18,878 nucleotides of DNA from Bdellovibrionales bacterium (GCA_031426555.1 JANPLN010000041.1:1-18878), one strand, 5' to 3'. Shown: positions 6,974 to 18,877, counted from the first letter of the stretch. The notes: generated from the sequence alone by a model not told the origin. Made by a program: numbers and translations.

Positions 6974-7318
6974 TTAGGCTTTAGCCCAAGACATACACCA
7001 GCCGTTTTTAGCAACCACTTTGGCTGCGAAAATCGAACATGGTGCATACGGCGCATTTTTGTCCACAGACTTGCACGTTGGATCTAATTCTTTAGCCGCA
7101 CACTGGTTCCACTTCGCGCAGGTGTGACAAATGGCTTTTTTGTCAGCTCTTTCCGGTCCCGCTTTGCTGGCGTCGGCCACATATTTCATTGCCTTAGAAA
7201 GAGGCTCGGCCTCACTAAGAGCATTGGCTGGGGCTCCGGCGGCGAACGAAATTCGCGGGATCACAAAAGCGATGGGTGAAAGGGCAAGGACTTGTAGTAA
7301 CGAACGTCTTTTGATCAT
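6974..7318 (-). CDS. High-potential iron-sulfur protein (HiPIP), Tat-exported
   Basis: Twin-arginine signal KRRSLL...SFA, then LSE.EP..KAMKYV.DA, CHTC, CSIF, V..NGWCMSW. AGGAG RBS. Confidence 0.92.
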   Translation of the reverse strand: MIKRRSLLQVLALSPIAFVIPRISFAAGAPANALSEAEPLSKAMKYVADASKAGPERADKKAICHTCAKWNQCAAKELDPTCKSVDKNAPYAPCSIFAAKVVAKNGWCMSWAKA

Positions 7319-7394
7319 ATTATCTCCTGGTTGATCGTAATTGAAAACATAATGAAATATAAAAGACTGCCAAATGAATGTCTAGCTCGTTTTG

Positions 7395-7443
7395 AAAAAG
7401 TTTACGAATTATTAAACTTTTTGTAAAGGTACCAAGTACCTTT
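7395..7443. repeat. Two adjacent inverted repeats in the cytochrome c-HiPIP intergenic region
   Basis: aaaaagttta-N8-taaacttttt (7395-7422) and aaaggtac-caa-gtaccttt (7425-7443). Confidence 0.6.
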
Positions 7444-7486
7444 TGCGGCGGCGGGGCGTTATTTTAGGGCGTGTTTTTAGACGAAG

Positions 7487-8260
7487 TTAATTATTGAGGG
7501 CGCCGTTGGCGATCCACTGGGAAATGGCGCTAAGTTCGTTTGTAACAAGACGTGGCGCACTCCGTGGCATGTTACCACTTTGAACCTGAGTATAAAAAGC
7601 GCTCCCCGCGGGATTGCCCGCCACCACGGTTCGCAAGGTGTTGGCATAGCTATCATACCGAACACCACCTCGCGCCAGAGCGGCACCGTGGCATGAGATA
7701 CATTTGGGCTCGAGGATGAATTTACGAATCGAGGCATACGTGGGCTGCAGCGTATCCACTGGTACTGGTACCGGAGTTGGTGTTGGAGTTGGAGTTGGCG
7801 CTGGTGTTGGTGTTGGCGCTGGCACTTCGGGCTCCAAAGCTGCCAGCTGGTTGGACCAATCGGTGATGGCAGCTAAAACCTCCATCGCCACAGATTGTGG
7901 AAACCCCTGGTGGCCGGAATTTATTTTAAGATAAAACAGCGACGAAGCGGGCGTTTTTAAATCGACCAGCGAGTTATTGAGCACAGTCGTATGGGAGGCA
8001 TTCACATCGGCCACTGAGTGAAGAGGTGCCTGATTTGTTCCGTGGCAGGCTGCACAGTTGGTTCGCAAAACTGGAAACAAGGTTTGTTCGTAGATTGCAA
8101 GGGAAGCGCTTTCTAAAGGGCCACCGATGATATCCGAACTGTCCTGTTGTGCGCTGATAGAGCCACTGATACCAGTCATGTGGGTGGGACTGCAGTTTAA
8201 AAAGAAAATCATAGTAAGCAGTGGCACAACAATTAGGTAAACTTTGGCTTTTAAAGACAT
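7487..8260 (-). CDS. Di-haem c-type cytochrome lipoprotein (two planctomycete-cytochrome-c-like domains joined by a Pro/Thr linker)
   Basis: Lipobox FFLN|C, two CxxCH motifs (NCAACHG, KCISCHG), VVAGNPAGS...GNMP...ISQWIANGA, and a PAPTPTPAPTPTPTPTPVPVP linker. Confidence 0.85.
   Translation of the reverse strand: MSLKAKVYLIVVPLLTMIFFLNCSPTHMTGISGSISAQQDSSDIIGGPLESASLAIYEQTLFPVLRTNCAACHGTNQAPLHSVADVNASHTTVLNNSLVDLKTPASSLFYLKINSGHQGFPQSVAMEVLAAITDWSNQLAALEPEVPAPTPTPAPTPTPTPTPVPVPVDTLQPTYASIRKFILEPKCISCHGAALARGGVRYDSYANTLRTVVAGNPAGSAFYTQVQSGNMPRSAPRLVTNELSAISQWIANGALNN
7757..7831 (-). repeat. Low-complexity 6-nt-period repeat encoding the Pro/Thr/Val linker of the cytochrome
   Basis: Imperfect tandem ggagtt/ggtgtt/ggtact hexamers on the + strand. 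Confidence 0.7.
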
Positions 8261-8340
8261 AACTACACCCCTACTTACTATGATAATGGGTCGTACTTAC
8301 ATATTCATCATTTTACTTTCAACTTTCCCAGATTGATTCG

Positions 8341-9702
8341 CTACTGTCCCGCGAACATCTTTTTAAGTTTATAGAGCAGGTTGAACCCCAAGCCTTTTTC
8401 GGCTTTTACGTCGAAAGCTTGGTCAATCAAGGTCTGGGCCTCGGGCTTTTCGTGCACGAGCCCATTCACCACCGCCACTGGTGGTTTGTGGAAGCCCAAG
8501 GTTTTTGTTCCCTCGAGGTGCGCGTCCACTGTGGTCTTGAACTCCCGTGCGAGAAAACACGATCGAAATTTTTCAAAATCAGCGCCCGAGTTGCGAGCGG
8601 CGTTATTGATAGACTCCTCGATCGGTGTCTCGCCTTTTGTAAAGAGCGATGGAAATTGCCAAAAGAAGGCATCGTTTTGCTTGCGAAGACACAAACTCGC
8701 CTCGGCCAGCATGCGCTCGTCGCTATTGCTATCTGGAAAATTAAAAATATATTTCACCACAAAGTACTTGGCGTTGTTTTGCGCAAACGTACTCATCGAC
8801 TGTAAAAGGTCTTGGCAGGATTCACATTGGGTGTTGGTAAACAGAAGAATTTCGATGGGACCATTGCCAATGCTGGGAACCATTTCTGGATTGATCTGCG
8901 TTCCATCCATGCGAAGTTGCGCTTTTTTAAAACCCACCTTAATAGGAGTTTTGATGAGGTTTTTGGCCATGTATGTCGCCATCAGTTGATCTCTTTCGCG
9001 CGCTTTGATGGTGTCAAGGATCTGGATTTTCAGCTCAGGTGTGAGTTCGGCTTCGTAAATATTGTTATTTTTCATAAAAGTTGCCAGATCGGACTCTGTG
9101 GGCTCGGGCACGCCCTTCATAATTGCATTTTGGATATAATCTTCCATGGTGGAATTGGCTTCTTTGGACGCTTGCAAAATTTTACGGCGGCTAATCACAC
9201 CTTCGAGAATTTTAATTTTTTGTTGAAAGCTGTCGGCGAGTAAGCGCGACAACAGCATGTCTTGCCCAGCAAGCTCTTCGCGCGTCCAGGTTTTTTCGCC
9301 TATTGTGGCGCCGTGGCCTTTGACGGCAGTTTCGTCAAACGAAACTGTAATGCTTTTGTTAAGTTTGTCTCCAAGAATTGTTTTGAGTTCTTCCTTCGGA
9401 GCGGCAAAACCGTAGGCTATGTTTATCTCTCCTTTTTCAAGGTCCGCCAGGGCTTTTTCGTAGACAAGAATAAGTACGATTTTGTTCATTCGTTCTTCGA
9501 GCTCTTGCAGTGCCGGCGATGGACCGAAGAGTTGCGAAATTGCGATTTCTTCGCCATCGACTTTCGCGATAATTTCGCCGGTGCTTAGGGCTTGGTCATA
9601 GGTAAAGAGCAGAGGGCTATCTACGGAGATGGCGTTCCGATCTTTCTTTGTACACGAAACATTGAACACAATTAAAAATACCAACGCTGCTAAAAGTTGC
9701 AT
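8341..9702 (-). CDS. DsbA/thioredoxin-like lipoprotein with a SurA-N-like helical N-terminal region
   Basis: Lipobox FNVS|C, IIAKVDGEEI, thioredoxin fold IEILLFTNTQCESC, AEASLCLRKQ...FW, KFRSC, LGFHKPPVAVVNG. GGAGGT RBS before ATG 9702. Confidence 0.75.
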   Translation of the reverse strand: MQLLAALVFLIVFNVSCTKKDRNAISVDSPLLFTYDQALSTGEIIAKVDGEEIAISQLFGPSPALQELEERMNKIVLILVYEKALADLEKGEINIAYGFAAPKEELKTILGDKLNKSITVSFDETAVKGHGATIGEKTWTREELAGQDMLLSRLLADSFQQKIKILEGVISRRKILQASKEANSTMEDYIQNAIMKGVPEPTESDLATFMKNNNIYEAELTPELKIQILDTIKARERDQLMATYMAKNLIKTPIKVGFKKAQLRMDGTQINPEMVPSIGNGPIEILLFTNTQCESCQDLLQSMSTFAQNNAKYFVVKYIFNFPDSNSDERMLAEASLCLRKQNDAFFWQFPSLFTKGETPIEESINNAARNSGADFEKFRSCFLAREFKTTVDAHLEGTKTLGFHKPPVAVVNGLVHEKPEAQTLIDQAFDVKAEKGLGFNLLYKLKKMFAGQ

Positions 9703-9825
9703 AACCTACCTCCGGTGCTGAACATTCTGATGATAGCAACTTCCTCCGGTAGCACCAAATACTTTACGAGACCTCTCTCGAAAATAAAGCTTCCTTCTGC
9801 GACCAAGGTCCTGATAATATTGGAT

Positions 9826-10731
9826 GTGCTTTCCACTGAGTCTTCACCTCTACTTTTCGAATTAAGTAAGCTCAACTCTGAGCAGTCGACGATGGTTCAA
9901 AGTGAACATGCACTCTGGGGGCTTAAGGAGCTCTCCTTCCTCGGAAATGATCAACGGCAGCAGGCCCTGCAAGTGCAAAAAAATATTCTTTTTCTTGATG
10001 AATTTTCGCAACTCAATCAAAAATTTGTGAAGCAAACGGGATCGCCTCTCACTCCCCTCAAAGGTCTGTCACTATTGCACGAGATTTACAGCAAAAACCT
10101 GAGTCGCTCGATGACTGATATGGATATTTATACAAAGCTGCCGGAGGCTCTATTTACAAAAACGCTCATGGACGCTGGATTTGTACCTGTCCTTGAAAAG
10201 AAATGGCGTTTCAATCGCCACAAATTTTTATTTAAAAAACAGCATGCCCTCACCGAAATTGTTTGCGAAGTTCACACAGATCTTGTGCCTCGTGCACATC
10301 CTTACCCTTGGACAATCGACACACAAGGCAAGCTCGCAAAAGACGAAGAGTTTTTATATCTGTGCTATCATTGGGCCGAGCAGCATACCTGCCTTAAATT
10401 ATTTTGGCTCTTTGATCTATTTTTTTATGTGCAGAAAAATCCCATGGACTCAGAGATCCTTTTGGCCAAAGCAAAACAACTCAAGATCACGTCCTCGCTG
10501 CTCGCCGCCCACTGGGCCCTGCAGAATTGTTTTCGGACTCCATTGTTACAAAATATTCCGCTGCATTATCGCTGGAAATCTTTTTTATTTAAAAAAATTC
10601 TGACACCCGCAACCTTAGCTCACATCCACGACAGACGCGGCATATATTTAATTCTTAAACATCTTTTGAAAGATCAATTCAGCTCGCAGCTTGCTTATAA
10701 TTGGTTATGGCTTCGCTATAAATACTTTTAG
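9826..10731 (+). CDS. Nucleotidyltransferase family protein (NTP_transf_5 type, as found in lasso-peptide and PqqD clusters); start uncertain, frame open from 9697
   Basis: NILFLDEF, LKGLSL..EIY, RSMTDMDIY (R..xDxD metal motif), CEVHTDL, FLYLCYHWAEQH, LFWLFDL. GTG 9826 follows TG-a-TAATAT. Confidence 0.8.
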   Translation: MLSTESSPLLFELSKLNSEQSTMVQSEHALWGLKELSFLGNDQRQQALQVQKNILFLDEFSQLNQKFVKQTGSPLTPLKGLSLLHEIYSKNLSRSMTDMDIYTKLPEALFTKTLMDAGFVPVLEKKWRFNRHKFLFKKQHALTEIVCEVHTDLVPRAHPYPWTIDTQGKLAKDEEFLYLCYHWAEQHTCLKLFWLFDLFFYVQKNPMDSEILLAKAKQLKITSSLLAAHWALQNCFRTPLLQNIPLHYRWKSFLFKKILTPATLAHIHDRRGIYLILKHLLKDQFSSQLAYNWLWLRYKYF

Positions 10732-10764: not shown

Positions 10765-11199
10765 CTATTTGGCGATGAGGCGTTGAACGAGTCGCAAATA
10801 AAGAAGGCCCAGCTTGCGGGCCACTCGACGACCCAGGATGGAGTTCTTTTTTTGGAAATACATTTGGGTCCAGCAGTAGGGGCTTAGGAGCAATTGGTTT
10901 TTTAGCTGTTGGGTTTTACCGGCTTTTTCTATACCTACCACGCGTCCCCATGAGGCGAATGGTGAAACGGGCTCTCCGTGAAGGCTATTATCTCCCTTGA
11001 GAAAAAGCATTTCCGAAGTTTTTCCAATCACACGATGACAAACGAATTCTTTTTTGTCTTCTCGATAGACGACAACATCTCCGACTTTTGGTTTTTCTAC
11101 CATTGAAAAATCGATCCAGACAAAATCCGCACTTTTAAAAATCGGATCCATACTCGAACCACGGAAGGGAATTTTTTGAATGACTTTGCTTTCGAACAT
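10765..11199 (-). CDS. S24/S26 family (signal peptidase I-like) peptidase, Ser-His type, no N-terminal TM helix
   Basis: GSSMDPIF (Ser), GDVVVY, VCHRVI (His), LKGDNS, GRVVGI. Its start overlaps the radical SAM stop (TGATG). Confidence 0.88.
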   Translation of the reverse strand: MFESKVIQKIPFRGSSMDPIFKSADFVWIDFSMVEKPKVGDVVVYREDKKEFVCHRVIGKTSEMLFLKGDNSLHGEPVSPFASWGRVVGIEKAGKTQQLKNQLLLSPYCWTQMYFQKKNSILGRRVARKLGLLYLRLVQRLIAK

Positions 11200-12230
11200 C
11201 AGACTGACAGCTCTTTTTTAAGCTTGGCCACGTCTTTCGAGAAACAGGTGAGAGTTTTCGCATCGCCAGTTTCGTTTTTGGCCATACCCGGACAGTGCTC
11301 GCAGAACGAGACCATGTCGTCAGAGACGTCTTTGATTTGCTTCCAGCGCATTTGTCTCCACGGCTGCACTTTTTCGCCATGCCAGAGCTCGTGAAAAGGT
11401 TTTTCGATTAAATTGCCTAAGGAATCGCGAATTTCGATGCATGGAAACAACTCGCCGTAAGCATTGACGGCGCATTTTCCTTTACCGGCATTACAGGTGT
11501 AGTCTTCGACTGTCTCGCCAGAGGCTTTGGGTTTGCCCATGGGCCAGCGACGCATTTTTTCTTGATAATAGTCTCGCAACTGATCGATGCTCGCGCGATA
11601 TTTGGTGGGCTCAAGATTCCCGTTGAGCTTTGGAGTGATCATGGGGTCCACCTTTAGCATCAGATCGTTTTTGAGTGCCCAATCTTCCAGGTCAAAAATT
11701 CCAGCGATGTTTTGTTTGGTGAGCAAACAGTTGATCGCAACTTGAATGCCTTCCTGACGACAAAGCTCGATGGCGCGGAGAGTTTTAGCGTGGGAGCCGC
11801 GCACTTTTGTCATACTGTCGTGGATGAGAGGATCGAGGCTGTAAAAGCTAATGGTTGCGTTTTGCAGACCGGAATCCTTAAGACGCTGAACCACTTCGGG
11901 AGACTGAATTTTTAGACCGTTAGTGATCATCGACGTGTGAAAGTTTAAATCTCGCGAACGCGCGAGAATATCCCAAAAGTGGATATTTAGCATCGCTTCG
12001 CCACCCATCAAGATAATGTAAAACGTGCCTGCTGCGCGCAGCTCTTGCAAAACGTGATACCACTGCTGCAAACTTAAAACGCGCTGGGGATTGTCGCTAA
12101 AATCTTCGATATAACAATGGGTGCAGCGCTCGTTGCAACGATTGGTTAATTCCAGCGAAGCTTGCAGTGGGATAAACTTGGCGCTACTCGTGTTTCGAAA
12201 CTTATCAAGAATGGACATTTCGCTGCTCAT
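11199..12230 (-). CDS. Radical SAM protein with a SPASM/Twitch domain (putative peptide maturase)
   Basis: ELTNRCNERCTHCY, MGGEAML, ITNG, HDSMTKVRGSH, CNAGKGKCAVNAYGELFPC, LGNL...F.ELW, FCEHCPG. ATGA overlap with the upstream kinase-like gene. Confidence 0.92.
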   Translation of the reverse strand: MSSEMSILDKFRNTSSAKFIPLQASLELTNRCNERCTHCYIEDFSDNPQRVLSLQQWYHVLQELRAAGTFYIILMGGEAMLNIHFWDILARSRDLNFHTSMITNGLKIQSPEVVQRLKDSGLQNATISFYSLDPLIHDSMTKVRGSHAKTLRAIELCRQEGIQVAINCLLTKQNIAGIFDLEDWALKNDLMLKVDPMITPKLNGNLEPTKYRASIDQLRDYYQEKMRRWPMGKPKASGETVEDYTCNAGKGKCAVNAYGELFPCIEIRDSLGNLIEKPFHELWHGEKVQPWRQMRWKQIKDVSDDMVSFCEHCPGMAKNETGDAKTLTCFSKDVAKLKKELSV

Positions 12231-13165
12231 GAGTTTTGATCCTGGTTGACGTGGGCAAAGATTTCGTCCCAGATTTTTTCTTTTTTCGGAAAAGACAATT
12301 CATAAAGGGGTATTTTTTGTAACAACAGGCCCACTAAGAGAAAGATTTTTTGCACATTCTCAGACGGCAACTGACTCCAAAAAACATTGGCCACTGCCGA
12401 ACTCAACAATTTGATTTGAGTGGACTTTGGGACGTGCTGCAGACTGATAGTTTCGCCTTTCTTTAACCACAAGAAGGCCTTCACTGGATACCAATTTGAG
12501 TACTCGGTGGGGTTTAACAATGCCTGTCCGAGAGCACCCGCCTGTGCCCAACACTGATCGTTTTCAAACTTAATCACGTTCATGTCATCGCCAAGGATTT
12601 TTTTGCGCGAACGGAAAGAAGCGATGGTGCTCTTGCCTGCACCGGAAGGTCCTAACGAAAAATAGGCCATGCCTTTTTCGTCAAGCACGCAGGAGCTGTG
12701 TAAGACCAACTTTCCCTGCTCGACTAACAAAACAGGTAGCAACCAACGAAGAAAATTAAAGAAACCATCGTCTAAGTGGTAGGGACAAATCAAAAAACAT
12801 TTTTTGTTTTCTAAAACGGCGGCAAAATCTCGCTGCACGGCGATTTGTTGATCGCCCACGTTGGTCACATAACACTCTGGCGAGGCTTCATCGGACCAAT
12901 TGTCGTTTGTCCAACCCAGCTGAGTGTTGTCGATCCAGAAAATATCGATAACTTCTTGCCCGTGAGCTTGCTGAAACCATGACAATGGATAGTGATCGTA
13001 AAGTTCTCCCAGCAACTCTTCGGAGCTGAGATGAAACCGGAGGGGAATACCGTGAATGGATAGATCCACTGCATGTTTATTGAATTGCGCTATTGATGGC
13101 TTAGTTAAATGAGCTCCCAATAGCGTCGCTTGTTTGTTTTTAAGGTGCTGAGATAGGGTTTCCAT
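12227..13165 (-). CDS. HPr-kinase-like P-loop protein (putative peptide kinase); frame open from 13207
   Basis: LVLHSSCV (His), GPSGAGKST (Walker A) and ILGDD form the His-Lys-Asp-Asp signature of HprK-like peptide kinases. C-terminal IPLYELSF. Confidence 0.8.
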   Translation of the reverse strand: METLSQHLKNKQATLLGAHLTKPSIAQFNKHAVDLSIHGIPLRFHLSSEELLGELYDHYPLSWFQQAHGQEVIDIFWIDNTQLGWTNDNWSDEASPECYVTNVGDQQIAVQRDFAAVLENKKCFLICPYHLDDGFFNFLRWLLPVLLVEQGKLVLHSSCVLDEKGMAYFSLGPSGAGKSTIASFRSRKKILGDDMNVIKFENDQCWAQAGALGQALLNPTEYSNWYPVKAFLWLKKGETISLQHVPKSTQIKLLSSAVANVFWSQLPSENVQKIFLLVGLLLQKIPLYELSFPKKEKIWDEIFAHVNQDQNS

Positions 13166-13239
13166 ATCTGAAAGTGTATTCGTGTTTAAACCACTGGTAC
13201 AGATCACTGTCCCGAAGGTCTAGGTCGAAGATGGAAGTT

Positions 13240-13268
13240 TTGCGCCGGCTCCTGTCTTCATGTAGCTT
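13240..13268 (+). promoter_or_regulatory. Putative sigma70 promoter for the precursor peptide
   Basis: TTGCGC (13240-45), 17-nt spacer, TAGCTT (13263-68), 6 nt, then ATG 13275. No Shine-Dalgarno. Confidence 0.55.
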
Positions 13269-13274
13269 TGTTGT

Positions 13275-13451
13275 ATGGACGCTCAACAATCTCCTCCGCA
13301 TCGCAAGACGAAGAAAAAATATCAAAAGCCGCGCATTCAATCCGAAGCATTGATGACTTTTGGAGCGCTTTGCAATGGCACTCTGTCTGGCGGACGAAAA
13401 CAAACGGCCAGCGCACCGGACAACTGCTCCGCAGGTAAGCTCCTCTCGTAA
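13275..13451 (+). CDS. Putative RiPP precursor peptide, 58 aa (not in the ORF track)
   Basis: Manual translation: MDAQQSPPHRKTKKKYQKPRIQSEALMTFGALCNGTLSGGRKQTASAPDNCSAGKLLS*. It has a KKxYxKPxI leader motif, a small-residue core with 2 Cys, its own promoter and terminator, and is adjacent to the kinase/rSAM/peptidase operon. Confidence 0.85.
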   Translation: MDAQQSPPHRKTKKKYQKPRIQSEALMTFGALCNGTLSGGRKQTASAPDNCSAGKLLS

Positions 13452-13480
13452 TAGAAAAATTCATAACGCACATCTCAACC

Positions 13481-13521
13481 AAAAGGTACGCCGTACCTTA
13501 AACGGTACGGCGTACCTTTTT
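13481..13521. terminator. Bidirectional intrinsic terminator between the precursor gene (+) and the giant C25 gene (-)
   Basis: Perfect 17-bp inverted repeat aaaaggtacgccgtacc-ttaaac-ggtacggcgtacctttt, with T tracts on both strands. Confidence 0.85.
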
Positions 13522-13537
13522 GCGTTTTTGCGAGCGT

Positions 13538-16500
13538 CTATCCTAGCTTTTTTCTTAATTTACGAATCATCACCCACGCAACTAGGGATTCTAAGCATAG
13601 GGCGAAGACGAGGTCCCAGGGGGTTTGGTGATTTTGCGATCCATAGGCGGCGTTGAGGGAACAGCCGCTGGAGCCGCCGCCGCTGCTCGGTGCGGCTGGG
13701 GTTGCGGGGGCTTGGGCGATGGCGGGTTTAACCATGGGGTCGCCGATGATGGTCCACGACATCATCACTTCTTTGAACGGTGATTGCTGGTGAGCTTGAA
13801 GTTTCGAAATTTTTACGGCATCACCCACCGAGCTGGTGGCTGAGTTTGAGCTTGAAAGCAAGCGCTCGTAGAAGGCTTTTTGATAAACACTTTGCACACT
13901 TGGCGGCGTCATTGAAGTGGAGCCCCAAAAGGCGATAGCTCCGCCGTCTTTTTTCATGACAAGCTTTTCGGCAAAACTCTCAAGCGCTGGATCATAGTAA
14001 AGAGCGTTCAAGCAGTTCATGGCCGTGACAACGGGAAAGTGGGTGTTTTGTAGAACATCGATATCGTTGTTGCTAAAAACATTCGCATCGGCCCACATAT
14101 TTTCGGCGCCATGGCCCATGTAATGGATCAACGATGAATTATCAAAGCTTGTCATAATTTGCGTCTTAAAATCGGCGTCGCTGAATTGCGAACGTTTAAT
14201 TTTGTCGAGAGTCATATTGGCATTCCAACTTTGAACACCCAGAGCGAGCTCATCGGTGAGTTGGTCAAAGTCCTCGCCTTGATTGAGCGGCTTGTCGGTT
14301 AACACCGTTAAACGCGTATTTTGTGGTTTGGACTGACCCGCTTCGTACTGTAAAACTTTTTGCACGTACGCACTCAGCTGAACTGACGTTTGCGCAGGAA
14401 TTCGACCAACCACGGCGAAGGGTGCCGTATCCTCTGCTTGAGTCACGTACCAGTTATCAGAGCCGTAGTTAAACGCCACACCTTGAATGAGTTTTACTGG
14501 AAAGCGATTTTTAATCTCGCTGTTTTGATAAGCCTTTGGATCGTAGGTTCCATCGCCGAGTAAAATATAATACTTTGGCTTTACAGCCCATGACGTGTGC
14601 GCGTAGATAAAAAAGTCGCGAATCGAATCGATGTTTACCAAGCCCTGACCAAACTCATTATAGATGCTCTCCAGAGTAACTAATTTTACTTTGTACCCCT
14701 GCTGTTCACGAAGTGCTGCCAGTGGCTGTACAGAATCAAGAAGCTCTTCCGTTCCGACATAAACCACATCGGCTTCGCTAGCGGGATCTAAAAGATCACT
14801 TCCGTAATTCAATTGTAGAGAAGTGGCTGAGAGCAACTCAGTCTGGGTCGAAGCAAAAATGCGACGTCCCTGCTGAGGATCGGACTGTGTGTTAAACTGC
14901 ATAGCAAAGCCCATGGATGTTGGTGCTGTGGCCGAATTCGTCCAAAGAGCTGGCTGGCCAAATAAACTGAGGTCGTAAACTTTGACTTGCGCCGACGAAA
15001 ATCCATCCACCACAAGGTCGGTGTTGACCTGATGATTCATAATTAAAATTTGGTCATCGACCGCTTGCCAATTTTGATAGTAAGAAATATCAACGGAATT
15101 GATATACATCATATCGTATTCGCCAGCGATGAGATTTTCGCCAGTGGGTTCCAGCGTGATGCGGTTTAAGCCCGGGGCAAAGTAGTTAGATGGCACGCTC
15201 AGGTTTACGATTTGCACATTCGATCCACTAAATGTTTGCTTGGCTACGGGCACATCATTCACGCGCAGCTGCAACGTGTTGATGTAATTGTTCGCCCCGT
15301 TTCTGCGACTCTTCACAAGGGCTTGCACGAGTACTGGCCGTTGCGTATCGAGGTTGGCTAAAACCACGTCTGTGGTCAGACCCACTCGCGCACCACCCGA
15401 AATTCCATAGTACATTCCCCAAACAAACAGATCCATATCTTGATCGTAGGGTTCATTAAAAACTGCCACGTTGTTTTGTTCGAGGTGAATTCGGTTCATA
15501 AACGAGGCCACCTGCGAAGCTTGTCCCGAAAAATTCGAAACATCCACGGCAGACATTCGCAAACCTGGAGTCACAGCAAGTACATCATTCACTAAAAGCA
15601 TGTAGCTCAATCGACTCTCTAAGGTTTCGGTGTGGGGTGCAAAAAAGCGAATTTTATCGCCCGATGAGAAGTAACCAGAAGTGCTTTCCACTTCGATAGC
15701 GTGCTCTTGGTTGAGAAAATACATTTTAAACTGCCCAACATCAGCATGATCAAATGGATTTATCACTCCTGCAGCGTACATTTGATCGTACGTTAATTCG
15801 TAAACGCCATCTGCTGCCACACCAATTTTAAGAGAACCCGGCAACCCCCAAGCTTCGTTGACAGCCACAGGTTGAGTGGGAACCCACGATGACGAGCTAT
15901 CTAAAAACACATCCAGCACAATTTCGTCGTACTTTTTTAAATTTTGCGCGTTTGCTTGGTAGGATAGAGGCGAAATCACAACCGGTAAATAGTATTGACC
16001 CTGATCATTAAGAATTGTGCCTAAAGAAATAGGCTGTGCAGGTATGTACGTGTTGTTGGCGTACGCACTGGTATTGAGTGTCCACTGCTCGATAAAATGA
16101 TTGCCACTTACGACCCAGCGGGGCGCTGGAGCTACAAGTACAGAACTTGCAACGGAAGACACTTCGGAAACAACATTCATCTGCGCCGATGTGGCTTTGT
16201 CTATCTTCAGCATGAATGTTCGTTGCAACAACTCGGGATCCCCGGCTTGCACGCTGCGCGAGTACAGTGGAACGCTGAGCTGCTTATAGCTTGGATATGT
16301 GTCATGGGCGCTGAGCTGATAGTTTGGAATGGTGATTTTAATGCGGTAGGCATTTTGCGTTTTGCTTAGCAAAGTAATATTGGGTTCAAGCACAACCAAT
16401 CCCGGAGTGGCGTCCGCAGGAGCTTGTCCACCCGAGCTTTGGCTGCCCGAGGGATTACTTGAAACAATCGTACTCGCCAGTGGTGGCGGCGCCGCGCTGA

Positions 16501-18877
16501 GCACCGTGAGCGGCGTTGCGCTCACCGGCCCGTGCAGCGTTCGCTCTTCGGTGGTGGAAATATCTTCGAGCTTGTAATAGTAAGCCACAGAGTTATCCAC
16601 ATCTTCGTCGATAAAAGCATAGGTGCCGTGCAAATTTGCACTAAATAGATCGTTGCGTATCAGCTCTGAGTTGATTTGCACATAACCCGAAGATGGAGAC
16701 AAACTTCTAAAAACATTAAAGCCTTTATGCAACCACTCAATGCCCGTTGTCCATTCTAGGACAACTTGCCCGTTGAAAGGTGTGGCTTTGAATTCCGTGA
16801 GCGACACTGGAGAATTTGCTGTATCAATAACGATATTGCAATTGGTTTCGGAAATCTTGGCGTTGGTGTTAGTTGTAGTGTACGGCCAAAAATCACCGAA
16901 CCATTGGTCGAAGGTCACAGTTCGACTGCTACAGCCTGAGGAAAATCCTAAAAAGTACGATGTGGCTTGTGAAGGGACGGAGTTGCCGCTGGCCCAGTAC
17001 CAACCAAAGTTAGAAATGGTCGACGGCAACGATCCGGTCGTGTTCAATTGAATCGCCCGCATACCCGCGGTGCTCGGCAAGCTTCGCAACTGACCACCGT
17101 TAATTTGTGTGACGTTGGTTGTACCGCCAATATTCAAACCGCTGGTTCCTAACCATTCAAAAACAAAACCCACAAGATTGAGAGTTCCTGAGGTGGCGGT
17201 GAAATTCCAAGTGCCGGTGGATTGCCGTGTGAAGGTGCCCTTATTCGATAACGATTGTGGATAAACGTCGTTGGTGCCGGTTGTCGCTATTGTACCGCCA
17301 CTCAGGGTGATTGTTTGCCCGCTACCAACTTGAACCGTTCCTCCGGAGGAAACCGAAAGCGTTCCTGCACTCACCGTCATTCCCGCTGGGACCACCAGGG
17401 TTTTGCTGTTAGGAACCGTAAAGGTAAAATTACTACCTGCAGACATATTAAGAAGGCTGCTCACCGTCAGCGAGGCGCTGCCGATTTCTACCGAACCGCC
17501 TGCTGTTTTGTTGAAGGCCAGGGAGGTTAACGCCGACGAGCTGCTCACCGTTTGCGACGTAGACACCACACCATCATCGCGAATTGTTAAAGGAAAAGCA
17601 CCTTGAGTGAAGGTTCCGGTATTTTCGAAGGATCCATAAACTTGCAAGGCTCCGCCTGTCATGGTGAGAATACCCGTACCGATGGTGATGGATTTGCAAG
17701 ATTGCGTACCTGTAGAGATGATCGGATCGTTGGCGGCATCGTTGATCACGCAATTGAGCGCACTTGTCGGCAAGCCGCCGTTCCAGTTTCCTGCCAAGGC
17801 CCAAGCCGTACTTGTCGCTCCTGTCCAGTACGTGGTGGTTCCAACGATGGATGTGGTGCCCAAGTTAACGGCAGGAGCAAAGGACCCGTTAAAGGCATAG
17901 CTTTGTGAGTTCGTAACATGGGATGAAGAATTTATTTCGGCTCCCACGGTGGCCCCATTTGTCGCGGTGGAACTCAGTGAGTAAGTCACATAGAAGCAGC
18001 GTTTGGGAGGAGTGGTTACATTGGCTTGAACTGTAGCACCGGTAATAGAACTAAAATCTGCTCGAGCAGGACTTCCACTGAAGGTTTGTGTCCCCACAAG
18101 TGTTCCACCACTACCTGTGCATGCCGAATCATAGAAAAGACTGGCACTGTTCACGTCGGAGGCCGAACCTGTTCCGGTTAAGGTGATGCGCATGTAAGTA
18201 ATATCGGTGTTTGAAAAAGCACCGGCGCTGGTTTGTTTAAAACCAAATCGACCCATGTTAACCACCGCACCTTGATTGCTGGATGCCGGAGCTACTGCTT
18301 CTTGGGTTAGATCGAGAGTGTTCACCGCAGCTCCCCAGCTTACAATATAATTCACCGCAGTTGAAAAAGAGAGACCCGTCATGTCTCCAGAATAATTGGA
18401 AACTGTCAAAGTTCCTGCGCCCGTATTTGTAGAAATACTGCGTGCCCCAGTGACTGCTGAACCGCCAGTGGAAAAAGTCATAGAATCTAAGGTGTTGCCC
18501 GGCACTTGACGAAGAAGTCGTAAGAAGAAAGCATTGTTAACCCCAGGATAACTGTAGCTACCGTTCTGAAGTTGGTTAGTGGCGTTGATCGTGGCTCCGG
18601 AATTGATGGTCAATCCTGTGAGACCTAAATTTTGTAAAGAGTAATATCTGGCGCTGATGGTTCCACTCACGTTAATCACGTAACTGCTCGCCGTGTTTGG
18701 TGAACGAATGTTCGCTGCACTGGAGGACGTGCCCACAAACTCAAGCGTTCCACCCAAGGCCACTGTCATCGTTGTTCCGTTGGCCATCACGAGTGTGGCC
18801 CCAGGTTCAATATCTAAGACGGCAGGGCTGTTCACGTTGATGCCACCGTTTACTGTGAGAGTCACTCCAGAGGCAAT
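13538..18877 (-). CDS. Giant secreted/surface protein with a C-terminal peptidase C25 (gingipain/PorU-like) domain and a Gly-rich/Cys C-terminal sorting signal; 5'-truncated by the window edge
   Basis: Open to the window end (IASG-VTLTV...). Thr/Gly/Ser-rich beta-solenoid-like region; PVSLTEFKATP..VLEWTT..E....GFNVFRS module; C25-propeptide-like segment; LKIGVAADGVYELTY; LESIYNEFG, YYILLGDGTYDPK, SDNWY, VGRIP, YMGHG (His), MNCLN (Cys), IIGDP; ends SSGGGSSGCSL...hydrophobic helix...IRKLRKKLG. Confidence 0.88.
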   Translation of the reverse strand: MASGVTLTVNGGINVNSPAVLDIEPGATLVMANGTTMTVALGGTLEFVGTSSSAANIRSPNTASSYVINVSGTISARYYSLQNLGLTGLTINSGATINATNQLQNGSYSYPGVNNAFFLRLLRQVPGNTLDSMTFSTGGSAVTGARSISTNTGAGTLTVSNYSGDMTGLSFSTAVNYIVSWGAAVNTLDLTQEAVAPASSNQGAVVNMGRFGFKQTSAGAFSNTDITYMRITLTGTGSASDVNSASLFYDSACTGSGGTLVGTQTFSGSPARADFSSITGATVQANVTTPPKRCFYVTYSLSSTATNGATVGAEINSSSHVTNSQSYAFNGSFAPAVNLGTTSIVGTTTYWTGATSTAWALAGNWNGGLPTSALNCVINDAANDPIISTGTQSCKSITIGTGILTMTGGALQVYGSFENTGTFTQGAFPLTIRDDGVVSTSQTVSSSSALTSLAFNKTAGGSVEIGSASLTVSSLLNMSAGSNFTFTVPNSKTLVVPAGMTVSAGTLSVSSGGTVQVGSGQTITLSGGTIATTGTNDVYPQSLSNKGTFTRQSTGTWNFTATSGTLNLVGFVFEWLGTSGLNIGGTTNVTQINGGQLRSLPSTAGMRAIQLNTTGSLPSTISNFGWYWASGNSVPSQATSYFLGFSSGCSSRTVTFDQWFGDFWPYTTTNTNAKISETNCNIVIDTANSPVSLTEFKATPFNGQVVLEWTTGIEWLHKGFNVFRSLSPSSGYVQINSELIRNDLFSANLHGTYAFIDEDVDNSVAYYYKLEDISTTEERTLHGPVSATPLTVLSAAPPPLASTIVSSNPSGSQSSGGQAPADATPGLVVLEPNITLLSKTQNAYRIKITIPNYQLSAHDTYPSYKQLSVPLYSRSVQAGDPELLQRTFMLKIDKATSAQMNVVSEVSSVASSVLVAPAPRWVVSGNHFIEQWTLNTSAYANNTYIPAQPISLGTILNDQGQYYLPVVISPLSYQANAQNLKKYDEIVLDVFLDSSSSWVPTQPVAVNEAWGLPGSLKIGVAADGVYELTYDQMYAAGVINPFDHADVGQFKMYFLNQEHAIEVESTSGYFSSGDKIRFFAPHTETLESRLSYMLLVNDVLAVTPGLRMSAVDVSNFSGQASQVASFMNRIHLEQNNVAVFNEPYDQDMDLFVWGMYYGISGGARVGLTTDVVLANLDTQRPVLVQALVKSRRNGANNYINTLQLRVNDVPVAKQTFSGSNVQIVNLSVPSNYFAPGLNRITLEPTGENLIAGEYDMMYINSVDISYYQNWQAVDDQILIMNHQVNTDLVVDGFSSAQVKVYDLSLFGQPALWTNSATAPTSMGFAMQFNTQSDPQQGRRIFASTQTELLSATSLQLNYGSDLLDPASEADVVYVGTEELLDSVQPLAALREQQGYKVKLVTLESIYNEFGQGLVNIDSIRDFFIYAHTSWAVKPKYYILLGDGTYDPKAYQNSEIKNRFPVKLIQGVAFNYGSDNWYVTQAEDTAPFAVVGRIPAQTSVQLSAYVQKVLQYEAGQSKPQNTRLTVLTDKPLNQGEDFDQLTDELALGVQSWNANMTLDKIKRSQFSDADFKTQIMTSFDNSSLIHYMGHGAENMWADANVFSNNDIDVLQNTHFPVVTAMNCLNALYYDPALESFAEKLVMKKDGGAIAFWGSTSMTPPSVQSVYQKAFYERLLSSSNSATSSVGDAVKISKLQAHQQSPFKEVMMSWTIIGDPMVKPAIAQAPATPAAPSSGGGSSGCSLNAAYGSQNHQTPWDLVFALCLESLVAWVMIRKLRKKLG

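Follow-up and report, generated by a model that had tools for sequence, protein, structure and literature searches.

We found that a 58-codon open reading frame in the 18,878-nucleotide stretch of Bdellovibrionales DNA analysed here (the window) probably encodes the precursor of a RiPP family that, as far as sampled, is confined to Bdellovibrionota, with a pathway consisting of a PqqD-type recognition protein, a radical SAM (rSAM)/SPASM enzyme, an HprK/ScmC-like kinase, an NTP_transf_5 enzyme and a SipW-type peptidase. Both gene position and phyletic pattern link the peptide gene to these enzymes. By its gene content, the system appears to be a relative, so far undescribed and distinguished by its rSAM enzyme, of the systems that tailor linear polyphosphorylated peptides (LPP) and phosphorylated lasso peptides, in which phosphorylation of the C-terminal Ser58 and cross-linking involving Cys33 and Cys51 of the peptide are predicted. 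The relevant features of the window are as follows.

9697–10731, plus strand: NTP_transf_5 (PF14907) nucleotidyltransferase-fold enzyme (PF14907 E 1.7e-20).
10765–11199, minus strand: soluble SipW/Sec11-type signal-peptidase-I homologue of 144 aa, predicted leader peptidase (PF00717 23.3 bits, at the cut-off).
11199–12230, minus strand: rSAM/SPASM enzyme of 343 aa without an N-terminal RRE (PF04055 E 3.8e-25, PF13186 E 2.1e-8).
12227–13207, minus strand: HprK/PEPCK-fold P-loop kinase of 326 aa, ScmC-like (weak PEPCK_ATP and HprK_rel_B matches).
13275–13451, plus strand: predicted precursor peptide gene, 58 aa and TAA (open frame, pN/pS, database relatives).
13275–13367, plus strand: predicted leader M1–A31 (column conservation in 121 sequences and the LPP leader register; cleavage predicted).
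13368–13448, plus strand: predicted core L32–S58 (invariant C33, G35, R41, K42, C51 and S58).
13481–13520, strand unassigned: two-way intrinsic terminator hairpin with a 17-bp stem, common to the convergent C25 gene.
13538–18877, minus strand: giant C25-family peptidase gene, 5' end outside the window (PF01364 E 6.7e-69).

The ATG at 13275 opens the frame and the TAA occupies 13449–13451; the coordinates and the 58-residue translation proposed in an earlier sequence-only reading both match exactly. The ORF appears in the window's ORF listing, and several homologues are annotated as 'hypothetical protein' in public records. The window contains 130 ORFs of at least 40 aa and the size of this one is in itself not unusual; the peptide ORF stands above chance because it is conserved across relatives. 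A six-frame search recovered the peptide in 11 of 41 related genomes, the window's own included (E 1e-35 to 3e-11), and stops are absent from every peptide match in these 11 genomes. This frame alone is open in 13/13 homologous genes and each of the five other frames carries stops in most of them, so that conservation in an overlapping alternative frame, named beforehand as one outcome that would speak against the peptide, was not what we saw. Among the peptide homologues pN is 0.16–0.45 vs a pS of 0.61–0.97, with synonymous sites saturated. The dN/dS comparison that the earlier reading had proposed gave 0.10–0.31 for the pairs with a computable dS, pointing to purifying selection. The comparative data thus indicate that the peptide gene is real and under purifying selection. 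Pfam and NCBIfam returned no family for the peptide or for three overlapping alternative ORFs.

The flanking signals bear on a second proposal of the sequence-only reading, a stand-alone transcript bracketed by a -35/-10 pair and a terminator. The terminator half of this proposal stands: at 13481–13520 a hairpin with a stem of 17 bp lies between an A run on the 5' side and a T run, and its folding energy of -37.2 kcal/mol (z = -7.4) was equalled by 0 of 200 shuffles. The A run and the distance of 18 nt to the point where the convergent C25 gene stops (13538) indicate, however, that the hairpin is bidirectional and shared, and it is no proof of a stand-alone transcript. The promoter half fell away, as a sigma-70 scan of 12900–13800 found 0 sites vs 0.7 expected in shuffles. 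No Shine-Dalgarno sequence was seen 5' of the peptide ATG. The upstream region is poorly conserved across four same-genus loci, three of which have a short GAAGGTCTAGGT-like stretch in common.

A profile search of a 5.8-billion-protein collection found 152 relatives of the peptide at E <= 0.01, of which 0 carry a Pfam domain and all that are named are called 'hypothetical protein'. All of these database relatives are from Bdellovibrionota, with Bdellovibrionales, Pseudobdellovibrionaceae, Bdellovibrionia, Halobacteriovorax and Oligoflexia as named sources. Among the best 120 of the 152, the C-terminal residue is Ser in 120/120 and GALC is present in 97/120; exactly two Cys occur from GALC onward in 97/97, and they are spaced 18 residues apart in 87 of these 97. 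Within the literature searched, which excluded subscription journals and bioRxiv supplements, we found no description of this peptide family; for RiPPs in Bdellovibrio the matches were surveys only.

The 11 sequences from related genomes align over their full length, with M1, K14, Y16, P19, E24, G30-A31-L32-C33-N34-G35, G39, K42, C51, L56 and S58 invariant in all 11. Across all 121 aligned sequences P19, A31, C33, G35, R41, K42, C51 and S58 are invariant (121/121), the two Cys, C33 and C51, among them. Ser58 is the last residue and the sole column with a universal Ser/Thr. The predicted leader has a Lys-rich N-terminus followed by Y16xxP19xI21...E24xL26M27xF29G30A31, and contains, by sequence, a [Y/W]xxPx[L/V/I] motif of the RRE-binding type. 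The leader motif noted earlier, Y16-x-x-P19, proved nearly invariant (Y16 in 120/121, P19 in 121/121), and position 21 is I, L or V in 109/121. The predicted core, on the other hand, is so strongly conserved as to be atypical for an antibiotic RiPP, which counts against a RiPP-pathway reading.

The kinase, rSAM/SPASM and peptidase genes lie on the opposite strand, divergent from the peptide gene, and are followed by the convergent NTP_transf_5 gene. The peptide gene adjoins the kinase and rSAM genes in 10/10 of the relatives' loci, in three arrangements: divergent in the window's genus and in genomes G009 and G010; first in the operon in G023, G012 and G030; and between the rSAM and peptidase genes in G039 and G027. 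Further variants come from a pair of genomes with public MAG records. In G041 the peptide gene is upstream of the cluster at a distance of ~10 kb, and the giant C25 gene occupies the interval; in G042 the peptide gene is on another contig, beside ABC genes. The peptide gene is therefore adjacent to the enzymes in 10 of 12 other genomes, and a homologous ORF near related rSAM genes, which the earlier reading had suggested looking for, is indeed present; it is on the same contig as the enzymes in 11 of the 12. The unlinking in 1/12 genomes, together with the ~10-kb separation in another, counts against the pathway reading.

The full-length kinase (E <= 1e-106) and the peptide occur in the same 11/41 genomes and in 0/30 of the others. 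Synteny and phyletic profile hence agree with the earlier suggestion of a precursor-type peptide tied to an rSAM gene. The rSAM/SPASM gene is found in 13/13 loci and the NTP_transf_5 gene in 11/13. In two genomes of the same genus, G001 and G003, the syntenic site carries a deletion scar at which kinase residues 3–160 abut NTP_transf_5 residues 2–38:

~7175–7831 of G003 contig C59 (locus L049): deletion scar; peptide, rSAM and peptidase genes gone.
~1667–2338 of G001 contig C7 (locus L050): deletion scar; peptide, rSAM and peptidase genes gone.

We looked for a remnant of the peptide at both scars and found none. After the scar come genes for a thioredoxin-like protein, a cytochrome c and a HiPIP, as in the window, and in G003 also ZapA; the G001 contig ends earlier. 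In the window this bordering block (6974–9702) encodes a 453-aa thioredoxin-like protein, a 257-aa c-type cytochrome and the HiPIP. Among intact cluster loci the three genes are shared with that of G002 (L016) alone, and the two scar genomes also keep them; because they are conserved within the genus only, they probably lie outside the system.

A Pfam scan found no exporter in the window cluster, which also counts against the pathway reading. An ABC ATPase gene, accompanied in 5/13 loci by an ABC-2 membrane protein gene, stands beside the peptide gene or the cluster, as at L039 6171–6806 and L024 10804–12257, and is a candidate exporter; the pair is of the ABC-2 type and does not resemble MsbA.

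The likely start of the kinase is Met15, at 13165. Its HSS, GxSGxGK(S/T)T and LGDDM motifs are invariant. The AlphaFold (AF2) model of the kinase (pLDDT 85.6) has ATP-PEPCK as its top Foldseek match (E 8e-8), with HPr kinase 1knx at E 2.6e-5. Kinase homologues in the database carry the precomputed family PF27840, named ScmC by Atlas. The NCBIfam scores of the kinase are 18.6 for HprK_rel_B and 23.6 for HprK_rel_A, each vs a cut-off of 200.

The rSAM enzyme begins directly with its core domain and has a CNERCTHC motif and invariant C246, C253, C264, C310 and C313; its nearest solved relatives are SkfB, CteB and PqqE. No curated NCBIfam model matched it at the cut-off, with GeoRSP_rSAM reaching 77–95 bits vs 400 and ScmE 64–75 vs 400. 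Given the five invariant SPASM Cys and no curated rSAM family at cut-off, the type of cross-link is not fixed.

The peptidase scores 43.8 bits against TIGR02228, under the cut-off of 51.85. Its S16, H55 and D70 are invariant, in GxSM, HR and GD contexts, and its AF2 model (pLDDT 89.1) matches SpsB, SipA, LexA and the human SPC in Foldseek (S24/S26 fold). A search of its N-terminus for a membrane anchor found none. The invariant Ser-His-Asp, the fold matches and the missing anchor together predict a soluble enzyme of the SipW/Sec11 type. We also noted a 420-aa database protein (P0233) in which an S24 peptidase domain is fused to a ScmC/PEPCK-like kinase, a fusion that suggests a functional link between kinase and peptidase.

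A gene for a PqqD protein of 87–95 aa (Pfam E 1e-12 to 1e-18) lies between the kinase and rSAM genes in 7/10 loci, and also in G041 and G042. The window cluster and three same-genus loci have no PqqD/RRE gene, another point against the pathway reading; there is none between the kinase and rSAM genes in this genus because the two genes overlap by 4 bp. The window's own genome (G000) has a single PqqD, encoded at 24247–24525 of contig C17, whose identity with the cluster PqqDs is 52% for G009 and 43–44% for G010. Across the 41 genomes its only relatives are the orthologues of its own genus, among them that of G003, together with the cluster PqqDs and, as two weak matches (E 1.4e-6 and 3.2e-4), a PqqD of another type that occurs in G002 and G003. 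Its neighbours at C17:14500–27974 (L052) are four GT4 glycosyltransferases, DUF4234, DUF2752 and a GT2, and this glycosyltransferase block is orthologous to and syntenic with the cluster flank in G010 and G009. This is most simply explained if, in this genus, the genes for the peptide, the kinase, the rSAM enzyme, the peptidase and NTP_transf_5 relocated, and the PqqD gene stayed at the ancestral locus of polysaccharide type. G003 keeps the C17-type PqqD without the peptide, so this PqqD may serve another role.

The PqqD profile scores 9.6e-14 with TbiB1, 2.3e-12 with LppB and 4.3e-9 with PbaB1, vs 8e-7 with the PqqD of the PQQ pathway, and it is thus closer to lasso/LPP recognition proteins than to the latter. 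The best NCBIfam match of the cluster PqqDs is ScmD, at 34–48 bits vs a cut-off of 100, with geo_PqqD at 27–29 vs 100.

Among the closest described counterparts is the LPP system, with LppA/K/B/S/N/D, from Paenibacillus alginolyticus (Popov et al., Nat Commun 2026, PMC13381572). According to the available text of that report, LPP precursors share the leader YxxPxVLxHQxIxFETxxS, with Y-16, P-13 and V-11 occupying pockets of the RRE; an RRE-dependent SpI-like peptidase (catalytic S29, H68 and D93) cuts C-terminal to T-1 while F-3 occupies a hydrophobic cleft, and cleavage requires F-3, E-2 and T-1 (PMC13381572). A cut after A31 of the window peptide would place Y16, P19, I21, M27 and F29 at -16, -13, -11, -5 and -3, which is the LPP register as described there: Y-16, P-13, hydrophobic residues at -11 and -5, and F-3. 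This equal register predicts cleavage at FGA/LCNG. The leader/core boundary that had been placed near FGAL from the sequence alone thus agrees with the register of the experimentally mapped LPP leaders in the available text (PMC13381572). L-10, H-8, Q-7, E-2, T-1 and S+3 of the LPP consensus given there are not kept.

The likeness extends to the enzymes. As far as the LPP account goes, both systems have a SipW-type soluble signal-peptidase-I homologue and a discrete PqqD-type RRE, whose profile here matches LppB, and an HprK-like kinase and an NTP transferase would probably be common to both. The kinase is likened to LppK and to PadeK of the lasso systems, as described in those sources, on the grounds of a fold and three motifs (P-loop, HSS and LGDDM) that fit the PEPCK/HprK superfamily, and the NTP transferase is likened to that of LPP by description, PF14907 being the family of the window enzyme. 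An ancestral position within a glycosyltransferase locus is likewise a trait of LPP in its published description. There are also clear differences from the system as portrayed in that text. An rSAM/SPASM gene is integral to the present loci, whereas LPP is linear with phosphorylation as its primary modification and no further enzyme acting on the core; the core of ~27 aa contains two Cys, ends in Ser and hardly varies, whereas LPP cores are variable and phosphorylated at Ser3. Unlike LPP so described, the window has no MsbA-like exporter, the RRE is encoded in trans in the window's genus, and the host belongs to Bdellovibrionota and not to Bacillota, to which LPP is given as restricted (PMC13381572). 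LppK is described as polyphosphorylating core Ser3 (PMC13381572), not a C-terminal Ser, and the LPP analogy therefore leaves the phosphosite unfixed.

A C-terminal phosphosite has its parallel in phosphorylated lasso peptides. In the available text on paeninodin-type lasso peptides, the HprK-like kinase PadeK acts on the linear precursor, whose C-terminal Ser it phosphorylates, and in pseudomycoidin (PsmK/PsmN) a nucleotidyltransferase attaches hexoses to the Ser phosphate (PMC8498205, PMC7533575). The present system resembles these accounts in combining an HprK-like kinase and a nucleotidyltransferase with a precursor that ends in Ser, and in its YxxP-type leader, which in lasso systems, as described, is bound by a B1/PqqD RRE. 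It differs in having an rSAM enzyme in place of a cyclase and a B2 transglutaminase peptidase. We found no Pfam domain of a lasso cyclase (Asn-synthetase-like C) or a B2 cysteine peptidase in 17 window proteins, and a lasso peptide as such was rejected, there being no cyclase gene, no B2 gene and no Asp/Glu at core positions 7–9 for a ring. The invariant terminal Ser, HprK-like kinase, NTP_transf_5 enzyme and SipW-type peptidase nevertheless set the system beside LPP and the phosphorylated lasso peptides.

Two further comparisons concern the rSAM enzyme. The SynChlorMet system (SCM; ScmC PF27840, ScmD TIGR04248, ScmE/ScmF TIGR04250/04251) shares the architecture of an HprK-like protein, a PqqD and an rSAM/SPASM enzyme, as well as the PF27840 assignment of the kinase homologues and ScmD as the best match of the cluster PqqDs. 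It differs from the present system in having two rSAM enzymes vs one, in the added genes here for a SpI-like peptidase and an NTP_transf_5 enzyme, and in scores that stay far under the cut-offs (ScmD 34–48 vs 100; ScmE 64–75 vs 400). Membership in SynChlorMet, GeoRSP or HprK-rel-A was therefore rejected, the score of every tested NCBIfam model being below its curated cut-off. Literature searches found nothing on SynChlorMet or PF27840, and nothing relevant on GeoRSP or the HprK-related kinase; to our knowledge no precursor is known for SCM-type cassettes of an HprK/ScmC-like kinase, a PqqD and an rSAM enzyme. The sactipeptide and ranthipeptide systems (SkfB, CteB, AlbA-type) share an rSAM/SPASM enzyme and an RRE acting on a Cys-containing core, and their prerequisites, two invariant Cys and an rSAM/SPASM enzyme, are both present here; a thioether or a disulfide at the two Cys, both suggested by the sequence-only reading, would be candidate cross-links. 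Unlike in those enzymes, the RRE is not fused to the rSAM enzyme and there are 5 invariant Cys in the C-terminal domain.

The pathway is set out here with the chemical steps, their order, the cleavage site and the product function as we infer them. The leader motif Y16-x-x-P19-x-I21 would be bound by the discrete PqqD-type protein, supplied in trans in this genus (G000 C17:24247–24525), which would present the peptide. The rSAM/SPASM enzyme would modify the 27-residue core, most likely via the invariant Cys33 and/or Cys51, and the cross-link would most likely be a thioether. The HprK/ScmC-like kinase is predicted to phosphorylate the invariant C-terminal Ser58, and the NTP_transf_5 enzyme may decorate or extend the Ser58 phosphate. 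Finally, the SipW-type peptidase would cut the leader off after A31, freeing the 27-residue core.

A hint of what the product may do comes from the giant C25 gene, whose open frame of 1775 aa in the window is a part of a longer protein. A giant C25 gene (open frames of 1779–3543 aa) adjoins the cluster in 6/13 loci and is present in 10/11 peptide-positive vs 0/30 peptide-negative relatives, counts that do not amount to a statistical test because the genomes are kin. The gene is split across contig ends in G002 and was not found in G004, whose contig stops 150 bp past the peptide gene. In the 30 peptide-negative relatives we found no giant C25, some having just C25 paralogues of 509–675 aa; of the scar genomes, G003 is without any C25 match and G001 keeps only a 509-aa paralogue. 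In the genus g4, the peptide and the giant C25 occur in the same 2/12 genomes. This strict co-occurrence hints at a cellular role, possibly in predation, and not an antibiotic one. The modified peptide, cross-linked and phospho-(glyco)sylated as predicted, could then be a dedicated partner of the giant C25 surface protease in predatory Bdellovibrionota, serving as a maturation factor, an inhibitor or a cell-surface tether, a proposal that we regard as speculative and rather unlikely in this specific form; if true, such a role would be unlike that of any known RiPP. At its C-terminus the C25 protein has a stretch rich in Gly and Ser (GGGSSGCSL) together with a hydrophobic helix and a tail of basic residues, which looks like a C-terminal sorting signal.

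A different fate for the peptide would be that of a precursor to a small cofactor-like molecule, in the style of mycofactocin or PQQ, in which a few invariant residues are carved out and the rest is scaffold; the C-terminal K-L-x-S or the C-N-G or R-K sites would be the candidate source residues. The extreme conservation of the core (A31, C33, G35, R41, K42, C51 and S58 in 121/121) fits such a fate, as does the invariant last residue, which has its parallel in MftA, where the last residue is also invariant. A PqqD-type partner exists as well, and the rSAM enzyme scores 68–90 bits with the mycofactocin maturase model and 76–82 bits with PqqE. These scores, however, are far under the family cut-offs of 265 and 381, and the recognition protein is nearer to the B1 proteins of lasso and LPP systems than to PqqD. 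Together, the SpI-like peptidase, the kinase and the NTP_transf_5 enzyme make up a set like that of LPP and lasso tailoring, and a redox partner conserved across the loci is absent, the thioredoxin-like, cytochrome c and HiPIP genes accompanying only L016 among intact loci. We therefore consider a cofactor precursor distinctly improbable.

The peptide might also be no enzyme substrate at all, acting instead as a conserved small protein, either Lys-rich and regulatory or nucleic-acid-binding, or an antitoxin- or immunity-like factor travelling with the cluster. Its very basic N-terminus would suit this, its gene is divergent here and unlinked in G042, and modification of the peptide is a prediction. 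Against a free-standing protein, the leader has the same register as experimentally proven RRE-bound leaders, neither the two Cys nor the terminal Ser ever varies, and the peptide co-occurs strictly with the kinase (11/11 vs 0/30) and was lost along with the enzymes in G001 and G003, so that we hold this explanation to be very unlikely. A chance ORF in the spacer between the kinase and C25 genes, to which the many window ORFs of similar size and the missing sigma-70 promoter and Shine-Dalgarno sequence might point, is refuted by the comparative data, since several families of the order conserve the frame and keep it open although its synonymous sites are saturated.

If the peptide is the precursor of a modified RiPP, as we think probable, a defined substrate becomes assignable to the cassette of HprK/ScmC-like kinase, PqqD and rSAM enzyme. 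The toolkit of SipW-type peptidase, kinase and NTP transferase, published in 2026 as Bacillota-restricted, would be extended to Bdellovibrionota and joined to an rSAM enzyme. As the precursor is short and nearly invariant, with single candidate sites (two Cys and one terminal Ser), it should offer an unusually clean system for the study of kinase and rSAM chemistry. The PqqD on contig C17 would provide a natural example of an RRE parted from its pathway.

A second type of locus also combines an NTP_transf_5 gene with a PqqD gene. We found this type in G002, G004 and G005, but not in the window's genome. The G002 example (L026, contig C116:46463–49657) has an NTP_transf_5 gene and a lasso-type PqqD (NF033536, 49.6 bits), together with unannotated ORFs of 264 and 208 aa.
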